DNA of 64,000 nt from Octopus vulgaris (lineage: Eukaryota), in contig OX597817.1 in NCBI GenBank assembly GCA_951406725.2, positions 133,920,001 through 133,984,000 of the forward strand, written 5' to 3'. The notes beneath the pieces were generated by a model. It was not told where the DNA came from. It did not search any database and saw only the letters and a program-made list of their open reading frames with translations. Each line of letters starts with the position of its first letter. The first letter of the stretch is position 1. The translations under genes were made by a program, and so were the position numbers. Positions 7,950 through 51,808 of this stretch are shown here, in pieces.

Positions 7950-9390
7950 CAATCAATATGTGCATGCTTAGAGTAGGCCCCTTCATTGGGGTCATCCTTG
8001 CTACGTTCACTCGCCTTTCAACGAATTTACTGAAAGGCGGTATTTCTCGCTCCACTCACACTTACCTTTTCAAAGGAAACTCGAAAAAGGTGATGGTGGC
8101 TCGGCTACTACGAGAAAAGTGTCTGTCTTCAGCCCCTTTTAATCTTGTGCACCATACAAGCTCTTTCGCCAAGGCCACCAGGCATATAACCATTGCCTCT
8201 CCTTCTCGACCAAAGAAAGGAAGTTCAGCGATTGTTAGAATAGATGCAGTCGATAAGCGGATACGTCCTATATATGACACCTACTGTTCGACATAAACCC
8301 ACGAGTCAGCAACGCTTGGGCACTGGCTGGATGAGTGCAGAAATTTCATCGTTCTCTACGCATCTCAGGCAGATCCGGCTGATAGCATTTCCATGCTTGT
8401 AGAATTTATCACTACCAGGGGTCATTGCCGGTTCGAGATAGACTTGCTAGGTCAATCATTTCCAGAAATTATCCATAAACCCCGACCCAAAAGTCCTCCA
8501 GCACAGACCAGTTAACTGATTCCCGATCACGGCCAGAGTCTTCCTGAGAGCATTATCGTTATTGCCTGCCACTAAATCTCTATAGAACGCCTAAGCGGGA
8601 TTTCTACTGACCCCTCAACCCTACTGGTAGAGGGCTGCGAGCGCCCGGCGGCACACAGATCGCTAGACACTGCTTTGGTCTACGTTTGATCTAGGATTGA
8701 AGCTCAGTCAAAGAGACGAGCTGTGAAAAAGCAATTCTAACTAAAGTGACCACACTTGCTCAGCATCAATGAAGTGCTGGAGATGTCGCAGCCTCCGTGG
8801 GTGTCAGCGCATCATCCCCCAGTGAACTGCAGCCTTCCCACAGAAAGCGGAAGTGTAGGCACTCCAGTGTGATCAGTCGTGAACGACCAGACTGTAATAT
8901 ATGAACGACCAGACTGTAATATATGAAGAAGGCGATGTATGTCTGCACCACCTTTCTGGGATACTTTTTTCTCGACCCATTTTTAGGTGACCTTGGCCAC
9001 CCTACATCACCTCATCCCAGTTCTTCACCAAACCAGACTTAACCCATCCGTCCATCAGCGTCCTACAATCGGACAACATGAATCTGTTTCTCCAGATGTC
9101 AAGCTGCAGGCCCTTCAACTAGTCTTTTAGAGCAGAACCGATCAGGTCTATGTACCTTGTGTGCGACGCTATGACGGTAACGTCGTTTGCTTATGCAGAC
9201 ACAGTTCTTCCACGTCTTAGTTCGTACAGGTTTCCCATCAACGTCTCCAGTTTCTACAGTAGTGGCTCTACAGTCAGAAGGGACGAGGGAAGACAATCTT
9301 GACAGAAAGAGCGCATTCGTCCCAAATAGTCGAGCGAAGTCCTGCTAAAAACGGTGCACATCTACTCGAGCTTGAGTAGCAAGCGTCCAT
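7950..9390 (-). pseudogene. L1/Tx1-like LINE ORF2 3' remnant (C-terminal cysteine-rich region)
   Basis: Frameshifted translation ...HGNAISRICLRCVENDE...QCPSVADSWVYVEQ...GRIRLS...CLVALAKELVWCTRLKG...FFEFPLKR, typical of an L1/Tx1 ORF2 C-terminus. Confidence 0.6.
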
Positions 9391-18077: not shown

Positions 18078-19360
18078 TCAGTAGTTATATTTTTATAACG
18101 TGCTTTCACTTCCCTACCGAGCGCAGTTCTGTGTGGCTTGGGTGTGTGCTGTGGTTTGTTGTGATGCTCGTATGGTTACTGTACTGAAAGTGTTCTGCGT
18201 AGGATGAATGCAGTGCCTAGTACTGCAATTTTGTGTATGTTATATATATTTGTTAGTCCTGGTATTTTTTTTTTAATGTATTTGTCTGAATATTTTTTTT
18301 TTATCATACCTATCATACTATGGTAGGAATTGTTTCCGTTTTTAGATTCCACATTGGAGTTACCTCTATTCCCAGGTCTTTGCCTTTTGAAAGTTTCTCC
18401 ATTTCTTTTAGAGAAACGTTGTCATCTGCTGGTATTGATACATCAATTAGAAAGCATTTTTTCTTCATGATCTCTGACAACTATATCTGGTCTGTTGGCC
18501 TTAATTTCTCTATCTGTGTGTATTGGCATATCCCAGTGTATGGTTGCTTTCTCGTTTTCTGTGACCTTTTCTGGCGGGTGCCTATACCATCTTTTTTCTG
18601 TTGTTATTCCATAGTGTTTGCATAGCTTCCAGTGTAGGTCCCAACTCTGTCGTGTCTGTGAATATATTCCTTCTTAGCCAGGACTGGGCAGCCAGAGATA
18701 AAATGATTTATTGTTTCTTCTCCATCTCCACAGATTCTGCATTTACTTGTTATGTTTCTTTTCATTATATGTTTTTGGTAATTTCTGGTGGGGAGACTTT
18801 GGTTTTGTGCTGCAATTAAAAATCCCTCTGTCTCTGCTTTGAGTCCTGAGCTTCTCAACCATTGCTTAGATTTTTCTCTGTCTATTTCTTTTGCGTTTAG
18901 TTTAGCCCAGTATTTGCCATGAGGGTGCTTTTCTTGCCATCGTTTTATAATGGTCTGTTGCTGTTCTAGTTTTAGTTTTGATTTCATATGTTTTATAACT
19001 TTTGTTGTTGTTTCTTCTTCTTCTTCATATTTGTTAGGTAGTATGACTTCTTGTTTGTATTTGTCAGCTTCCTTAAATACTGAAAACAGTATTTTGTTTT
19101 GCTCGTGTTTTGTGGCTATTTCTATCAGTTTTTCTTGCTTCTGAAGTAGGTATTTTTGCAGTCTTATGATGGTTATTGTATAATAGTTTTCCAGCTGTAT
19201 AAGGCTTCTACCACCTTCTATACGTTGCATATATAGCCTTTCTATGTCAGATTTTGGCTGGTGCATCCTAGATCCTGTCATGATTTTTCTTGTTTTCCTG
19301 TCTATTTTGGTTAGTTCATTTAGTGTCCAGTTAAAGACTGTTGTACTTAAGGATATTGTC
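18078..19360 (-). mobile_element. 5'-truncated Dong/R4-like retrotransposon (thumb, CCHC, RLE)
   Basis: ORF 18604-19281: RLYMQRIEGGRSL...WLRSSGLKAETEG...CRICGDGEETINHFISGC; between (TTA)n tracts. Confidence 0.9.
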
Positions 19361-19448
<88 letters not shown>

Positions 19449-19452
<4 letters not shown>

Positions 19453-22400
19453 TAGTTTAAATTGTATAGTGTGCTTTCACTTCACTACCGAGCGCAGCTC
19501 TGTGTGTCTTGGGTATGTGCTGTGATTTGTTGTGATGATCTGATGGTTATTATATGGAAAGTATTCTGCGTAGGATGTGTGCAGTGCCTAGTAGTGCAAT
19601 TTTCTGTATGTTATATGTGTTTGTAAGTCCTGGTGTTTTTGTTATGTATTTGTCTGAATATTTTTTTATCATGCCTAATGCACCTACTATGAAAGGAATT
19701 GTTTCTGTTCTTAGATTCCACATTGTGGTTACCTCTATTTCCAGGTCTTTGTATTTTGAAAGTTTCTCAATTTCTTTTAGAGACACGTTGTCATCTGCCG
19801 GTATTGATACATAAATTAGAAAGCATTTCTTTTCTTCATGATCTCTGACAACTATATCTGGTCTGTTGGCCTTAATTTCTCTATCTGTGTGTATTGGCAC
19901 ATCCTAGAGTATGGTTGCTTTCTCGTTTTCTGTGACCTTTTCTGGTGTGTGCCTATACCATCTTTTTTCTGTTGTTATTCCATAATGTTGGCATAGTTTC
20001 CAGTGTATGTAGATTCCAACTCTGTCATGTCTGTGAATATATTCCTTCTTAGCCAGGACTGGTCAGCCAGAGATTAAATGATTTATTGTTTTTTCTCCAT
20101 CTCCACATATTCTGCAGTTACTTGTTTTATTTCTTTTCATTACATGTTTTTGGTAATTTCTGGTGGGGGGGGCTTTGGTCTTGTGCTGCAATTAAAAATC
20201 CCTCTGTTTCTGCTTTGAGTCCTGAGCTTCTCAACCATTGCTGGGATTTTTCTTTGTCTATTTCTATTGCATTTAGTTTAGTCCAGTATTTAACATGAGG
20301 GGGCTTTTCTGGCCATCGTTTTATCATGGTTCTTTGCTGTTCTAGTTTTACTTTGGATTTCCATTGTTTTATAGCTTTTGTTGTTTCTTCATCTTCTTCT
20401 TCTTCTTCATATTTGTTAGGTGGTATGATTTCTTGTTTGTATTTGTCAGCTTCCTTAAATACTGAGAACAGTTTTTTGTTTTGCTCGTGTTTTGCCGCTA
20501 TTTGTATCATTTTCCCTTCCTTCTGATGTAGATATTCTTGCAGTCCTATGGTGGTTATTTTATTGTAGTTTTCCAGCTGTATAAGGCCTCTACCACCTTC
20601 TATACGTTGTATATATAGTCTTTCTATGTCAGATTTTGGGTGATGCATCCTAGATCCTGTTATTATTTTTCGTGTTTTCCTATCTATTTTGGTCAGTTCA
20701 TTTAGTGTCCAGTTAAGGATATTGTAGCTGTAACTTATAACTGGGACAGCTAAAGTGTTAATACCTATTATCTTGTTTTTAGCATTGAGCTGTTTTTAGT
20801 ATTGATCTAACTCGTCTATAATATTCTTTTTTTTATTTTCTCTTTCATTTGTATGTGTTGTGTCTTATCTAGTTCATGGATTCGTAAGTATGTGCAAGTT
20901 TGGCTTTGGTCTAATTCTTTTATTTCATTGGTTTTATCTAGTGTGATGTTGTTACTCTTAACTAGTTTTCCTCTTTTCATGGTTACTTTGGCGCATTTTT
21001 CTAATCCAAATTTCATATCTATTTCTTTGGTAAATCCATGCCAGCTGTTTGTCATTTGCAGCGTATAGTTTTAGGTCATCCATATATAAAATGTGGCTGA
21101 TCTTGCCGTAACATTTATATCCGCATCCAGTACTATTTAGCATATCAGATAGAGGTGACAGTGCCAAGCAGAAAAGGAGTGGAGAGAGCGTGTCTCCCTG
21201 GAATATTCCTCTTCTAATGGGGATGGCTTTGGTTTTTATGAGTCCCTCTTTTGTTTGGAGCTGTAGCACTGTTTGCCATTTATTCATAGAGTGTCCTATG
21301 AATTTTATGATTGTTGGTACTACTTTGTTAATGGCTAGTGTTTCGAGGATCCATGTGTGGGGGATGCTATCAAACGCCTTTTTGTAGTCGATCCAGACCA
21401 TACTGAGGCCTTTCCTCTTTCTGTGGCTGTCTTAAGTTATGACTTTATTAATCATTAGTTGATCTTTACAGCCATATGAGCGTTTGCGGCATCCTTTCTG
21501 CTCTTCTGGGAACAGGTTGTTTTCGTCCAGGTGCTTGTTCAACCTTTGCGATATCACTGCAGTAAATGCCATGTACATTGTAGGGAGACAGGTTATTGGT
21601 CTGTAGTTTCTGGTTTTGCTGTCTCATTTGATTTGAGAATTAAGATAATTTTCCCCTTCGTGAGCCATTCAGGCATTGTCTCTGGCTCTGCCAGTATGTT
21701 GTTAAAATTTTCAGCCAGCTTTTTGTGCATTCATGTTAGATATTTCAACCAGAAGTTGGGGATCTTGTCATGCGCAGGTTCCTTCCAGTTGCTTAGTCTT
21801 TGCAGTGCCTGGGTGACCGCTTCAGTTGTTATGGGGGTCCAAAGTTGCTCAGATGCTGAGTTTGTTGTTTTAATACTCCTTTTTTTGGTTGTTCGTTCGC
21901 CGACCATATTTCTCTCCAGAATTCTTCCACTTCTTCTGCCGTTGGTGCTGCAGTGATTTCTATTTTATTTTTGCCAAGTTCTTGGTAGAACTTTTTGTGG
22001 CTGGAGTTGAACTTTTTGTTTTGTTCAAAGAAGAACTGGCGTTTCTCGTACCGGCGGATCCTTTGTGCTTTGGCAAGGATATCTTGCTTTAGCTTTTCTT
22101 TTATCTCAGGTAAATCTTTTTCTGTGATGTTGTATTTGCGGAGTATTTTTGTTTTCTTTTTGTTGCTCAGTAGCGTTGATTGTCTACTGATTTCATTAAG
22201 AATCGACAGATCTTTTTTCATTTTTTGTATTTTGTTTTGGATGTTATTTATCCACAGGATTTGTTTGGGTGGTGGTACTCCTGTTTGGACGGGTTTGAGT
22301 GAGTATCCAGCTTCTTTTGTGACTACAGTGGCTGCTGCGTATACTAAGACATTTAGCTCAGTGATATCGCTTTTTGTTTCAGTGGCTATTAGTTCCGTGA

Positions 22401-22678
22401 CGGCTAGGTTTATGCTGTTTATAATTGGTGTTGTTGTTTCGTCTATTTTGATTTTTGGGAGGTATGGTCGGTGGTCCATTTTGAGCTCTGTGGTTTTCAG
22501 CTTTTTGATTATTCTACTTTTTATATTATCATAATCATTAGGCTCCCCTTCGTTGTTTCCAGGTTTTAGATTTGTGTCATTTTCTTTCTTATTTGTATGT
22601 TTGTTTATCGTGTTTTGGCTTGCTGTTTGTCGTGTATTATTATGCATCCTTACGTTCTGGGTTTGTTGTTTTTTGTTT
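19449..22678 (-). mobile_element. Near full-length but frameshifted Dong/R4-clade non-LTR retrotransposon (RT, CCHC, RLE)
   Basis: WIDYKKAFDSIPH, GIFQGDTLSPLLF and HILYMDDLKLY (RT); RPDIVV...SIP...KLSKY (RLE); inserted in (TTA)n as known for Dong. Confidence 0.92.
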
Positions 22679-22690
22679 CTTCTTCTTCTT

Positions 22691-22792
<102 letters not shown>

Positions 22793-24473
22793 GCAGGTGC
22801 TTAGCGCATTTCCTCCGTCTTTACATTCTGAGTTCAAATTTCGACTTTGCTTTTCATCCTTTCGGGGTCTTTAAATTAATTAACAGTGAAACATTGGGGT
22901 CGACTAGTCCTCACCCTCAAAATTTCAGGACTTGTGCCTTTAGTAGAAAGGGTTATTATTATTATTATTATTATTATTATTGTTGTTGTTGTTATTATTA
23001 TCATTATTATTGAGTGAGATAGCAGCGCATATCATCAAAGTGACACTGGGGTACAGATATATGAAGTGCAACATATCCATCATTGCTACCCGTCCGATAA
23101 GGGTACATAAGGAACATATACCACAACTATATGTAAGCAGTTCTTTTATACAATCCGTTGGCCTATAACCTGATTGTGAGTAGAATTAAACTCTCCTAAG
23201 TTGTAGCTTAAACATAGTCTTCCGAACGGTATTTCACTGCTGAATATATTACGTGTTATAAAGATGCGAAGGCCCTTTCGTTTGTTTCATATCGGTGACA
23301 CACTCTTCGTTGTCCATAAGTTTGTGATAGTTAGATAAAATGAATGTATATTAAAAACTAACTAATAAAACTAATAACCAGCATTTGAAATATGTTATCA
23401 ATTACAATATATATATCGATACGTTGTTTCAAGTGCTGTATAAACTTCAGAGAAAACCCAGCAACAATACGGAGTGTTTTATAGTGGAATTATTACTATT
23501 TTCACATCATGGTGTCTCTGGGAAGGAATAAAGAAAAACAAACAAACAAATAGAAATCTTTAAAAATAACACCAAAAGCAATAACTGAATAAAGATGGCG
23601 AGAACCATTCATTTTGGAACTTCCGCGAGAAATTACTCGCTGAGCTGTGAAGCTTGATAACTTAATCTCTTAAGGTTTCCGTAAATGTGTCTTCAATGAA
23701 AATTCTTTGAGAAAGATTTTGTTTTGTAGCAAGTTAAGGTTATCCATATTGTTGAAAGAAGCAAGACAATTATCAGCACCAAAGTTTTCGCGTTCTTTAG
23801 AAACTAGTCCCAGTGCAATTTCGCTTTAAATCAGACGCTTCGAAGATAATTCTAATTAATATTTTGGTTTCTGTCAACTGCTTTGGCTTCGAAATCTTTC
23901 ATCAAAAGAAAATGACACTTCCCCCACGTTTTCGTATTGTCTTTCCATTTTCTCACCCCTCTTATATTCTCCTATGAAGCTGTTTGGCAAATTTAAACTA
24001 TTTTACTTCTTGCAGTTTAGTGCGGGGATTGGCGGTTTTTGTTTTGTTTTTTGTTTTTTTACAGTGAACATTTTGAAATCACTTCACAGAATCTGTTGAA
24101 ATGGTTTTGAAATGTTTGTACTTTTCAAGATAGAACGCTGCAAAGTCGTTTGCGGGTCTATTTTTGTGTTTTTTCTTCATTTTTGTATTTTATGTTATAT
24201 TCAAGTCAGTCAGTTCAACTTCAGACGTGTTACCATAAACATAACTTCTTCAAGAGGTTTAACAATTTTAATGATATTCACCGCATCACAGGAATCCTCT
24301 TTTAAAACATTTCCAGAAGCATCAAGGAAATTAGTTGGTCCATAATAATTATAAAACAAGGTATCAACTTTACACTGAAATCAATTTAGAACAAATTAAT
24401 TAATTAATACATATTATATAATACTACGATTCATTTACGATGCACGCTTTTATAATTTGAATAAGGCCGCTAG

Positions 24474-26954: not shown

Positions 26955-28339
26955 TAAAAAAGGAAATGAAGAAAATGCTGACAAATAATTGAAGTAATTT
27001 AAGTAATTTAATTAGGTGAAAGTTCTTTTTACCGGTTGCGCATTTGTTATGCTTATCAAAATATAAAAGAGAGATTAGAGTCTGTCTCTTATATGTGAAA
27101 AAAAGAGGCTCCAGAGTTGTTTGGGATTTGCTTGGTTTCGCGCCTAAAATTTTGATTGGTCATTATGAAGGGGTCACGTGAATGTTTGAATGGAAGTTGG
27201 TGTTGGGGTAAGAAAAAGGCTCCAGAGAAGTTAAAATTTGGCTAGTGTCCCGCCTAAAATTTCTTATTGGCCATAATAAAGAGGTCACGTGAATGTTTAG
27301 AATTTTCGAAAATAGTGTTGTTGAAAATTCTTATTGTTCAGGCTGGTCAGTAGACGTCATGTGGATATTTTAAATAGCTTTTTAGCGCGTAGTTAGGGAG
27401 TGTATTTTCCGCTTGACTGAATAAGTAAGTTCGTTTAGAACAGGGAGAGCTGTATGTATGTATGTGTGTGCGCGCGTGCGCGCGTGTGTGTGTTTATATG
27501 TATGTTGGGGCGCGCGCGCGTGTATATATGTGTGTGTGTGTGGGTAAAATTTTCAATATTTATAGTTCTGCTGGCCTTGTGCCTGTATCGGGAAGCAACG
27601 TATTTGTGTGAAGTCAATATTTACAGCCATTTCCAAAAATAGTGTTGGATGTTTTGCACCCGTATTCAATTATGTGTATGTGTGGAACCATATATTTGTG
27701 TGTGTCATGGTGTTAATATCTGGGTAAAGGTGTGTGTAGGGTGTGTGCAGGTGTAAGTGTGTTTGTTGTGGGTTCGTGTTAGGGGCATGTGTTTAGAAGT
27801 GGTCTGTATTTATTAATAAGGTGGGATTCCATGGTTATTCGCTGGGTATGAGTGGCATTGTCTTTAAATTTGTAGAGGAGAAAGATTCTAAAATTGGGAT
27901 GGAGTTGTGCGGCACAGGTATCAATATGTGCACTAAATGCTATTTTTCTATATTCCTGTATTTTTATTTGGGATCTGTGGACAGTCATGCGTTGGCGGAG
28001 GCTATTTTTTGTTTGGCCTATGTAGTGTTCATTACAGCCCGAGCAAGTTAAGACATATACTAGGTTTTCTGATGCGCATGTGAAGTTGTGTTTTACTGTG
28101 AAACGTTGTCCTTGTTTAAAAAGGAATTCCGGACCTTCTATTAGGTTGATGCATATACCACAGTTGGGTCTATTGCATTTGTTTACTGTGGGTTTAGTTG
28201 TTGTGGTTGGCAGTACTTTGGCATTTGTTAGGATGGTTTTCAATGATTTGGGTTGCCTTTTGCTCTTTATGATTTCGTGTGTTAGGAGGATTTGGTTCAT
28301 TCTATGGTCCTTTTGTAATACAGGAATGTTCTGGAGTAC
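26955..28339 (-). mobile_element. 5'-truncated Penelope-like element (PLE) with 3' pLTR region ending in (TA)n
   Basis: GIY-YIG ORF, then 3' UTR with a duplicated ~90-bp CCAAT/E-box module (27101-27302) and a decayed hammerhead (~27024-27070). Confidence 0.8.
27779..28300 (-). CDS. Penelope-like element GIY-YIG endonuclease domain (partial)
   Basis: CNRPNCGIC...FTCASENLVYVLTCSGCNEHYIGQT...RMTVHR...HID...ESHLINKYRPLLN. Confidence 0.9.
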   Translation of the reverse strand: MNQILLTHEIIKSKRQPKSLKTILTNAKVLPTTTTKPTVNKCNRPNCGICINLIEGPEFLFKQGQRFTVKHNFTCASENLVYVLTCSGCNEHYIGQTKNSLRQRMTVHRSQIKIQEYRKIAFSAHIDTCAAQLHPNFRIFLLYKFKDNATHTQRITMESHLINKYRPLLNTCP

Positions 28340-28427
28340 CTCTGCAATCGATAGAAAGTCTCAGCTAACTAGAAGGTAAGCTGCCGGCTGACTGTATATC
28401 TAGGCAGTAGTTCGTATCACAGAACCA

Positions 28428-48724: not shown

Positions 48725-49565
48725 GTATGTATATATATATATATATAAGATCCAGGTTTCCAGGTGTAGGAAGAAGGTTTAGCTTACAGCAATCTGTAGT
48801 GAATAAAAAAAAAATACTTTCAGAAACAATAATGGTTTATTGAGATGGAAATTTCCAGATTGTTTTTCTTTTATCGAAGAACGATGAGCTGGAACGAAGT
48901 TCTTTTTATATTCCTCGGTAGGCATCCAGAGTTGCCGAGTGTGCGAAAAAGAATACAAGGGTTACGAAATGGAGTGTGGGAAATCCAGGCTACATATGCT
49001 TCATAGCGAGTGGACCTACAGAAGTGGTAAGATCCATGTGAGGTGTATACCGTCGGCTACTCTTCAGGCCAAGGATTCTGACTGAAATCTTTGCGTCAAC
49101 ACGTACTTCCTTCCGACAATGTAGTCTTTAATCTAATTCAGATATTCTTGGCCCGCGGTATACACCTCACTTGGATTTTACCACTTTTGAGGTTCCACTT
49201 GCTAGCTTCCTAGGGCTAAATAGCGGTGAGTGATTCCCTTTACGGGACTGTCACGTTAAGTTGACAGTATACAACCGCTTTATCGTTCTACCACCGCTCA
49301 TATCTCTCTGAGATATTTAGAAATTTAATATTTCTAATTTCGGTGATCAGTGAATAAACTTCACTGAAAATATATATGTTTACGAAGGCTTTGCAAGCAT
49401 CTTCAGCTAGCAGGCCATGCTACTCTAAATTGTCACGTGCATCGTCAGAGTGTTGGTTTTTCTGAGTTGGCTTTGTGATATTGTGAGTACAGAACATTGT
49501 TATTGTCGAAAGTATTGTTATTGTTGAATTTTTGAAAATTGTTTCATTGCTACCCACTGTTGAGT

Positions 49566-50828
49566 ATGCAAACAGCAAGTTACGCGCAAGCAGCAGGTAA
49601 AAGCATGTCTGCCGACACGATGCAGTTAAAAGAGATAATAATCGAAAAGGGAAATCTGAAAAAAATATTTTGAAAGTTTTAAGAAGGAAGGAGATTGCCT
49701 TCGAATCACACCGCCGAAGGACGATGTAGAAAAAGCGGAGAGAAAGATCATTGTCTACAGAACGTGGAATGTAGCCACGAAAAATATAGAAGTGGCAGAG
49801 ATAGAAGACATCGAGGAATGTCTAGCAGAGATAAAAGATAGGACTACCTTCTACACAAGAGGAAGGAAGTTTGCTACCGTAGAAGTACGTTTTGAAAGTG
49901 AGGAAGAAGCTAAGAGACACGCTACTACGGTATTGAGAACAGCTAGGTGGATACTTCTACCTACCTATTGTGGAAAACAAGCAGCGAAAGTGAGAATAGG
50001 AAAAGTACCAACGGAGATAGATGTAGAAAGGCTGGTAGCAGCCATAATATACAATTGTAAAGAGGAGGTAGATATCCTCAAAGTTGAAAAATCAAGAGAC
50101 GTTAACTGGTGGAGTTATGATGTGGAAGCCCTGATACACATAACCCTGCCGGATTTACACATGATTGCAGAGGAGTTGATGCTACTCGACGAAACCCGAC
50201 TGAGAGTCGTGGTGGAGACCACCAATATGTTACAAATGTAAAAGTAGGGGACATATGCAAGCAAAGTGTCCCCTAAGAGAAGTGCAGGTGGAAGAGATGG
50301 AAATGTGCAGCGACGCAGCGAGAGAGTAGGAAAAAAAAGAAATAACGGCAGAAAGAAAGAGAACGAGGGTGGAGCCACCACCAAAAAGCTCCAAGAAGAA
50401 AAAAAACACCAGTAAGTGAAAAAGGAAGTACAGAGATTCGAACTCAGGAACCGAAGACAATGACAAAGAGTGAAGAAAATAAAGCTAAAAATAGGCGAAA
50501 TGCGAAGAATGGATGAGGAGAGCGAGTAAATTATGTAAGGCGAACAGGACGAGCTTTGGGACAGAATTTAAGAACGTTGATACTCTACGAAAAGAATATG
50601 GAAATAGAGAAAAGGTTAACCAAAACAAAAGGTTTGATAAGAGTAAAATTGGAACACGACATGTTTGAACCAAGCATTACAGCGGCATTAGTGGGACGAG
50701 AAAAAATGAAAAAACTAGTAGAGACATTCAAAGACAAGGTCAAATCATATAATATATATATTCGTTATGATAATCTGGCCAACGTGATTGGGCTGGAGGA
50801 CATAATAGAATATATAACAGATAGATAA
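49566..50828 (+). pseudogene. Frameshifted gag/ORF1-like nucleic-acid-binding protein (SYAQA motif, RRM-like region, CCHC zinc knuckle)
   Basis: MQTASYAQAAG...; ORF 49792-50241; shifted frame PICYKCKSRGHMQAKCP (CX2CX4HX4C) at ~50222-50272; basic tail and ORF 50556-50828. Confidence 0.75.
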
Positions 50829-51039
50829 ATAGAACGACTACAAACTGTATAAAGGAATTGTAAAATGAATCTGCGAGCTTGGGGGGATCGTAAGCCATTC
50901 CATTTTTCCATTACACATAACTCGTCTCATATTCATTATTTGTTATATGTACCCTAAATTTTGTATTGTTTGTATGTTATTGTAATATCCATTCTATATT
51001 CAGGCTACATGCCTATAATAAAGAGAAAGGCCATCATAC

Positions 51040-51085
51040 TCCAGACTGATGATGAGCAAGACTCAGAAACATGCATGTCTCTGGA
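51040..51085 (+). ncRNA. Canonical type I hammerhead ribozyme; predicted cleavage after C51079
   Basis: tccaga CTGATGA tgag-caaga-ctca GAAA catgcatg tc tctgga; palindromic stem III acatgcatgt. Confidence 0.88.
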
Positions 51086-51348
51086 TGCAGGCCTAGCTGT
51101 TGGGGGTGCTTGTCTCCCCTTCGTAACCATAAGAAAACAGGAAATGTGTCAAAGCCGACAGGAAGCGTCGATGCTTCCTAGGGCTAAATAGCGGTGTGGT
51201 GATTCCCTTTACGGGACTGTCACGTTAAGTTGACAGTATACAACCGCTTTATATATATATACACATATATATATATATATATATACATAAATACATACAT
51301 ATATATACATAAATATATATACATAAATACATACATATATATACATAA

Positions 51349-51480: not shown

Positions 51481-51808
51481 ATTATAATAAATTAGAGGCA
51501 AAACCACTATTATGCAAATAAAACAAAGAAAGACTTAAGCCAATACATAAAATATAAAATAATTTATATAAATTAAAATTTAACAAATGAATAACCACTA
51601 CGATCGTGTGTCGATATAGGTGGTTTCTAAACATTCTTAACGTTAAGAATGTTTAGAAACCACCTGAAGAATGTCTAAGATGTGCTGACACGAAACGATC
51701 GTAGTGGTTATTCATTTGTTAAATTTTAATTTATATAAATTATTCTATATTTTATGTATTGGGTCTTTCTTTGTTTATTTGCATAATAGTTTTTGTCTCT
51801 AATTTATA

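Follow-up and report, generated by a model that had tools for sequence, protein, structure and literature searches.

LINEs (long interspersed nuclear elements) that integrate into one particular sequence are known to target ribosomal, small nuclear (snRNA) and transfer (tRNA) RNA genes, microsatellites and DNA transposons. Among the members of the Tx1 clade, Tx1L resides in Tx1D, Keno in U2 snRNA genes, and Tx1-Mar, together with its passenger SINEU-3, in Mariner-N4_AMi, the criterion of target specificity, in the part of that work covered here, being that more than 20% of the flanks fall within one repeat (PMC4494074). Thirteen recently active L1-Tx1 families have also been described, with no mention of their targets in the part of the source covered (PMC13282606). 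Animal retrozymes of the kind without long terminal repeats (LTRs) are described, in the covered portions of two sources, as non-coding and not as LINE targets (PMC7229834; 10.64898/2026.07.22.740005), the terms “Tx1”, “ORF” and “octopus” giving no match in a search of the latter. A literature search, the scope of which left out Repbase, subscription journals and supplements, returned no publication on a ribozyme-targeting LINE, and a curated octopus repeat library could already hold the families described below. Here, we analyze a unit at positions 49205-51252 of a 64,000-nucleotide (nt) stretch of the Octopus vulgaris genome (GCA_951406725.2, contig OX597817.1; hereafter “the window”), in which an earlier note had seen one 2-kb element, possibly a protein-coding retrozyme, and which we find to be a retrozyme with a site-specific, ORF1-only LINE nested in helix I of its predicted hammerhead.

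Organization of the unit

The unit consists of two nested elements, both on the forward strand, rather than of one 2-kb element. Its outer parts belong to a 352-nt non-coding retrozyme (family A), the 5′-truncated first portion of which (49205-49411) is 92% identical to a natural tandem monomer. In solo copies found in the searched genome (2.8 Gb, 227 contigs), this portion runs straight into the hammerhead; the resulting 352-nt monomer is also found as tandem copies (352-nt spacing at L042/L043). In the window, it is followed by 16 nt of the 5′ strand of the extended hammerhead helix I (49412-49427), which recur, with 13 of the 16 positions identical, at 51028-51043. Between the two copies of this target-site duplication, missed in the earlier note, lies a 1,600-bp insert (49428-51027), an ORF1-only element of the L1/Tx1 group whose boundaries are those of its family across loci and whose 3′ end is homologous to that of complete elements; its first bases (from 49428) resemble the target site of another retrozyme family, B. 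The second copy opens a segment (51028-51094) holding a complete type I hammerhead with extended helix I, recognized by sequence, covariation and a constrained fold, with the core at 51046-51069 and the predicted cleavage after 51079. The remainder of the retrozyme (51095-51252) and then (TA)n follow, the terminus being one that is common among the solo copies.

The direct repeats of about 78 bp reported at both ends are indeed present (49205-49283 and 51173-51252) and differ at a single site (A versus TG, scored as one mismatch and one gap in 79-80 nt); AATAAA (51017-51022) and the (TA)n after the 3′ repeat are likewise where they had been placed, and the unit holds no reverse transcriptase (RT), endonuclease or LTR. 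The repeats and the hammerhead belong to the retrozyme, and the repeats together with the (TA)n junction appear to be its own Penelope-type integration marks. Calling the repeats “structured” finds weak backing, as they fold slightly better than shuffled sequences (z −1.8 and −1.6). Neither a Penelope-like RT nor a GIY-YIG ORF was found within the 2-kb unit, and it is no LTR retrotransposon or LTR retrozyme, its repeats being the terminal redundancy of a monomer and its hammerhead being of type I, not type III.

Insertion site and independent movement

The ORF1-only family is strongly site-specific for this retrozyme position. Copy-specific duplications surround its members at the same position in many loci and are perfect in some (L187, L227), a family tail precedes a hammerhead core by 5-35 nt in 87 cases (control, 1), and exact family tails number 322 genome-wide (control, 26). 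For a flank-blind sample, 48 tails were examined, regardless of flank, out of 54 listed for contigs C1 and C2; 40 were genuine, i.e., had the family 3′ untranslated region (UTR) upstream. Of these 40 3′ ends, 27 lie at the retrozyme site: 22 come immediately before a hammerhead (assigned by eye in two cases), four are stacked before another insert and one has the duplication only. This share is above the 20% of flanks by which target-specific Tx1 elements are recognized. Were hammerheads ten times as numerous as the strict pattern counts them, the target would still make up about 1e-4 of the genome, which puts the enrichment of the site above a thousandfold. Among genuine ends with enough sequence, the ORF start is reached by 20 of 26 on-target versus none of 9 off-target copies. 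The junctions listed precede the core by about 18, 26 or 35 nt, and a particular short tail goes with each of these discrete registers. Since all three are found within one retrozyme family, a constant spacing from the retrozyme's TATA-like run was dropped as a site rule. Some off-target inserts are paired before similar downstream sequences (L088 with L249, L076 with L078), which hints at secondary preferred targets.

Inserts and retrozymes also have separate histories. Different family members are stacked at one site with the duplication between them (L216, L138, L139, L293), a tree of 27 inserts requires the host to change between retrozyme families A and B four times, each change being forced by well-supported branches, and inserts that are 95-96% identical may sit in retrozymes just 87% alike. 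Truncation at the 5′ end does not prevent copies from making duplications at unrelated sites (L085, L248, L080), and relatives of the ORF exist without any ribozyme (arrays L121 and L122). The same test of independent insertion excluded hitch-hiking for SINEU-3, according to the part of the source covered (PMC4494074).

Complete elements at the same site

The searches for complete elements were anchored on the target, i.e., the target was required by the search, and the ORF2-bearing set is not flank-blind. Within this set, the same retrozyme site is where ORF2-bearing copies end at 6 of 19 loci and, from 52 matches, at 12 of the 30 that were fetched. When 20 loci were refetched, nine held ORF1 and ORF2 (4.6-5.5 kb) with the upstream retrozyme and the duplication, three more held both ORFs, and two were truncated with the duplication; an apurinic-type endonuclease, RT and zf-RVT, a C-terminal zinc motif (Pfam PF03372, PF00078 and PF13966), were recognized on L402 and L281. 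All 21 retrozyme-linked ORF2 ends fall on one side of a 100/99 branch, versus 20 others, in a tree without named references; from their architecture, we take these elements to be Tx1. One subclade (L392-L395; 100/100) has the tail of the window insert and its 18-nt register, in both retrozyme families A and B, and is likely to be the helper of the ORF1-only element, which would thus be its satellite. The helper ORF2 protein presumably sets the insertion site, since the target follows the tail and the helper subclade, not ORF1.

The first helper searches were fruitless because they had been built on the satellite tail or on a generic tail. With the satellite tail as the query, 84 family ends were located before hammerheads and none belongs to an ORF2, the lone ORF2 match being a nested element with its own tail, and the generic tail produced 28 chance matches. 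L077/L130 and L194 were rejected as helpers, being separate insertions.

Two observations concern other Tx1-type families. The subfamilies of an abundant complete family (L251-L280) each precede their own fixed downstream sequence, which suggests further specific targets. A very abundant short repeat, probably a short interspersed nuclear element (SINE), shares the 3′ motif of the generic Tx1-type family (L301-L312, flanks of L028 and L056), a similarity that points to that family as its possible helper.

The ORF1 protein

The ORF1 of the window insert (49566-50828) is broken; the SYAQA start at 49566 and the CCHC knuckle at 50228 named in the earlier note hold, and in place of its one frameshift there are several frame changes and stops. 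The frame covers two RRM-like domains, the knuckle (50228-50269; Pfam zf-CCHC, E 1.2e-5), a charged linker and a C-terminal alpha/beta domain (about 50517-50825, as judged from folds of an intact natural copy), and is followed by a 3′ UTR (50829-51027) with AATAAA and, at its end, a five-base family tail, without a poly(A) run. Natural open copies are 430-480 amino acids (aa) long (best 150 of 12,945 candidates scored), and the predicted model of an intact one shows the same succession of domains at a mean predicted local distance difference test score (pLDDT) of 59. Its RRM-like domains resemble RRM1-2 of IMP3 (Foldseek E 2e-4) and, with the best Z of 8.2 and a root-mean-square deviation of 2.7 over 76 residues, nucleolin. 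The C-terminal domain folds with pLDDT 94 in the predicted structure; it had no usable match in the ESM Atlas, yielded just weak ferredoxin-like matches with Foldseek and VIA-align (best Z 4.7), and was not detected in the complete elements.

The N-terminal part is 36% identical (E 3e-32) to the ORF1 of a complete element from an active family with endonuclease, RT and zf-RVT. Across nine open-frame copies, the median ratios of nonsynonymous to synonymous substitution rates (dN/dS) are 0.12 (N-terminal domains), 0.42 and 0.36 (C-terminal domain), with dS near saturation for many pairs; ORF1 is thus under purifying selection in intact copies, the one in the window being broken. Copies that have ORF1 alone and carry the extra domain group in a single clade (99/97), separate from the complete elements and with long branches. 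A word-indexed protein search with an intact ORF1 copy gave no match, and a profile search gave 1,521 unnamed matches, of which the 11 scanned by Pfam show only knuckles or unrelated fused domains. With a LINE-homologous ORF1, no ORF2, a 3′ end in common with an autonomous partner, duplications and 5′ truncation, the family has the properties of an ORF1-only non-autonomous LINE of the HAL1 (half-L1) kind.

A sister ORF1-only family with the generic tail and the same C-terminal domain sits, without a hammerhead, next to other Tx1-type elements, at their 5′ ends. At L121 (G000:C4:70.04 Mb), L122, L126-L129, L341 and L342, it forms young head-to-tail arrays of five to about eight 1.8-kb units, and this group of loci also includes complete Tx1-type elements whose 5′ end bears a chain of stacked members from different ORF1-only families.

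The host retrozyme and its hammerhead

The host repeat has what is expected of a non-LTR retrozyme, namely, a non-coding monomer within 150-450 nt, a type I hammerhead, and monomers along with tandems. In a search with the 3′ 233 nt of the unit (best 40 of 3,440 candidates scored), the ORF is absent from all 26 listed of the 29 other hammerhead-repeat loci, and among the other three, L187 and L392 hold inserts. A strict hammerhead pattern has at least 1,544 matches in the genome (control, 0), and at least four diverged retrozyme families (A, B, D and E) are present. Solo copies show partial tandems, inverted 5′-truncated arms and microsatellite junctions, which are marks of Penelope-like elements according to the part of the source covered (PMC8557442). 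The 5′ retrozyme part in the window also contains a hairpin (49348-49366) and a TATA-like run (about 49371-49378). Some retrozyme families (L123, L124, L138, L286, L293, L295) have changed first core bases and helix I extended to about 35 bp.

The hammerhead, called perfect and canonical in the earlier note (51040-51085), is of type I and its helices covary, with double changes in 9 of 13 pairs, including all six of helix I, across 20 genomic copies; four rows of the alignment are shifted, which lowers the support for helix III. The epithets, however, do not hold, as the pair at the base of helix II is open in 15 of the 20 genomic copies, the minimum-energy fold of the region is another one (z +0.94), and an Rfam scan of the window gave no match at the gathering threshold. 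Helix III closes on a palindromic loop, and two changes in the 3′ duplication of the window break distal pairs of helix I.

Penelope-like elements with intact GIY-YIG ORFs are abundant in the genome. Kinship with the pseudo-LTR of an autonomous Penelope-like element counts among the marks of a non-LTR retrozyme, as do self-cleavage and circular RNA. Retrozyme families A and B have no similarity to the flanks of 20 GIY-YIG loci (20 of 6,136 candidates) or to three intact 781-aa copies, and no Penelope partner of the retrozyme was identified among the loci examined. The 781-aa ORF family (L334-L336) is intact and has many copies, its terminal repeat showing no match to the hammerhead pattern.

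Elsewhere in the window, there are a Tx1-type ORF2 fragment (7972-9313), other LINE RT fragments (18607-22800) and a Penelope-like GIY-YIG ORF fragment (27782-28360), all on the reverse strand and the latter two named by resemblance. An AT-rich inverted repeat with arms of about 140 nt lies just downstream of the element (about 51500-51790).

Discussion

We consider it highly probable that the unit arose when a now decayed ORF1-only retrotransposon of the L1/Tx1 group entered a 352-nt retrozyme in the 5′ strand of its helix I, with a 16-nt duplication; target-primed reverse transcription, with ORF2 protein supplied in trans, is the likely mechanism. What was observed directly in its favor are the nested anatomy, the duplication, the family-wide site preference, the clade of complete elements at the same site, the match of one of its subclades in tail and register, and the selection on ORF1. 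The alternative that the earlier note had kept in reserve, an ORF1-only LINE derivative within a ribozyme repeat, is therefore borne out, with the addition that the insertion is site-specific. Mechanistically, the nick made in the retrozyme by the helper ORF2 protein would lie upstream of the catalytic core, about 18, 26 or 35 nt away depending on the subfamily, the shared 3′ end would mark the satellite for recognition, the satellite would supply its own ORF1 RNA-binding protein, and target-primed reverse transcription would proceed with the endonuclease and RT of the retrozyme-targeting complete lineage in trans. The duplication would then rebuild helix I downstream, so that the ribozyme stays whole, and, more speculatively, the retrozyme might lend its transcription and hammerhead cleavage a 3′ end to the element.

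Several points weigh against this explanation. The putative helper is linked to the satellite by the shared tail and register, and each of the four helper copies that have this tail is 5′-truncated or rearranged. Of the genuine 3′ ends in the flank-blind sample, 13 of 40 lie outside retrozymes, the target sequences of families A and B differ, host labels are clustered on the insert tree (1 of 500 shuffles was as low), and in family A the identity of the inserts tends to rise with that of the flanks (Spearman 0.48). Finally, the terminal repeats of the window are closer to each other (one site in 79) than the copies of the duplication are (3 of 16 positions), or than the decay of the insert (2.6-3.9%; private change of 10/386 at codon positions 1-2, branch 0.039) would have it, a hint that the unit may have been re-copied as a whole.

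The proposal of a native protein-coding retrozyme or Penelope satellite, with the ORF as an integral part acting as its own chaperone and the 352-nt repeats being deletion derivatives, could appeal to the overall layout with terminal redundancy that many filled copies share and to the abundance of intact GIY-YIG ORFs. It is very improbable, and already largely refuted, given that the ribozyme repeat mostly occurs empty (26/26 listed loci; 87 filled sites versus 1,544 strict hammerheads), that copy-specific duplications in three or more registers surround the ORF, in the window as elsewhere, and that inserts switch hosts and stack in tandem, while relatives of the ORF do without a ribozyme, and its coding sequence and 3′ end are homologous to those of L1/Tx1-group elements, with homologous ORF1s linked to ORF2 and complete elements at the same site. 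A related idea, which adds to insertion rather than replacing it, is that the window copy and a minority of others were re-copied whole as one 1.97-kb RNA via the Penelope-type route, becoming de facto coding retrozymes. The clear case is L003, where an inverted arm begins at the retrozyme terminus, continues across the hammerhead into the insert and stops at the retrozyme hairpin without a duplication (98.2% over 674 nt); with similar but less clear arms at L228, L183, L188, L203 and L195, about six loci suggest that filled retrozymes may sometimes be re-copied whole. The window repeats likewise look younger than the insert (Poisson p 0.08-0.015) and than the duplication (Fisher p 0.014-0.07) when their one differing site is counted once; counting it as two differences weakens these statistics, and one outlier among about eleven loci is expected. 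About ten further filled loci have terminal repeats with 91-95% identity, which makes these repeats no younger than the respective inserts. At about 12 loci, a tandem or inverted arm holds a second site that is empty, and the two arms of L240 carry different inserts. No near-identical donor was seen, the closest other copy being 86% identical (best 40 of 3,794 candidates). Release of a monomer takes two hammerheads, according to the covered part of 10.64898/2026.07.22.740005, and the window copy has a single one; L028, L030 and L201 are loci with two. Re-copying of the window unit is, on balance, rather unlikely.

Targeting by the satellite's own ORF1 protein, perhaps with its C-terminal domain binding a factor at the retrozyme promoter, has a precedent in Dictyostelium TRE5-A ORF1p and TFIIIB, in the part of the source covered (PMC5633606). 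The domain is conserved in the ORF1-only clade, confidently predicted and absent from what could be detected in complete elements. Those elements, however, reach the retrozyme site all the same, the sister family at L121 takes the same domain with a generic tail to the 5′ ends of other Tx1-type elements, and the target tracks the tail, not ORF1, which makes this option improbable. A wider extension of insertion by a helper in trans would be a ribozyme-specialized LINE lineage in which the duplication rebuilds the hammerhead, self-cleavage replaces polyadenylation, the retrozyme provides transcription and filled units are occasionally re-copied whole, in a four-level chain of Penelope element, retrozyme, complete LINE and ORF1-only satellite; we hold this to be doubtful, and, if it were true, whole re-copied filled retrozymes would be true protein-coding retrozymes.

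A LINE lineage at a fixed position of a ribozyme helix, across diverged retrozyme families with differing target sequences, would constitute a new target class, and the choice of site across the differing A and B targets raises the testable question of what the endonuclease recognizes. The intact downstream hammerhead offers a direct test of self-cleavage as 3′-end processing of a LINE. An old, selected ORF1-only clade whose target changes with its 3′ tail provides a natural experiment in the recruitment of ORF2 protein by passengers, and bears on why passengers keep an ORF1 of their own.

The comparisons that follow rest on the parts of the cited sources covered. The host repeat resembles animal non-LTR retrozymes in its non-coding monomer of about 350 nt and type I hammerhead, as well as in its monomers, tandems and Penelope-type partial tandem and inverted ends (PMC7229834; 10.64898/2026.07.22.740005); unlike in described retrozymes, a few per cent or more of its sites are filled by 1.6-kb or 5.3-kb inserts. 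The satellite is like mammalian HAL1 in being non-autonomous, with ORF1 only and the 3′ end of its helper (PMC5753468), and unlike it in being site-specific, in its ORF1 of the RRM-RRM-CCHC type with a C-terminal domain, which forms an old clade apart from the ORF1 of the helpers, and in a junction without a poly(A) run. Dictyostelium TRE5-A.2 is similarly ORF2-less, position-specific and mobilized in trans, as the satellite would be; it inserts upstream of tRNA genes via ORF1p-TFIIIB, whereas the target here tracks the 3′ tail and the helper subclade (PMC5633606). Similar in arrangement are the Tx1-clade systems, where, as with Tx1-Mar and SINEU-3, an endonuclease-RT helper and a non-autonomous passenger use a common multicopy target, tandem insertions sandwich a duplication (of about 16 nt) and truncated copies prove independent insertion (PMC4494074). 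Unlike SINEU-3, the passenger here encodes a selected ORF1 and is not a SINE, and, unlike the targets of those systems, the one hit here lies in a non-autonomous retroelement, the retrozyme, and is helix I of its hammerhead.
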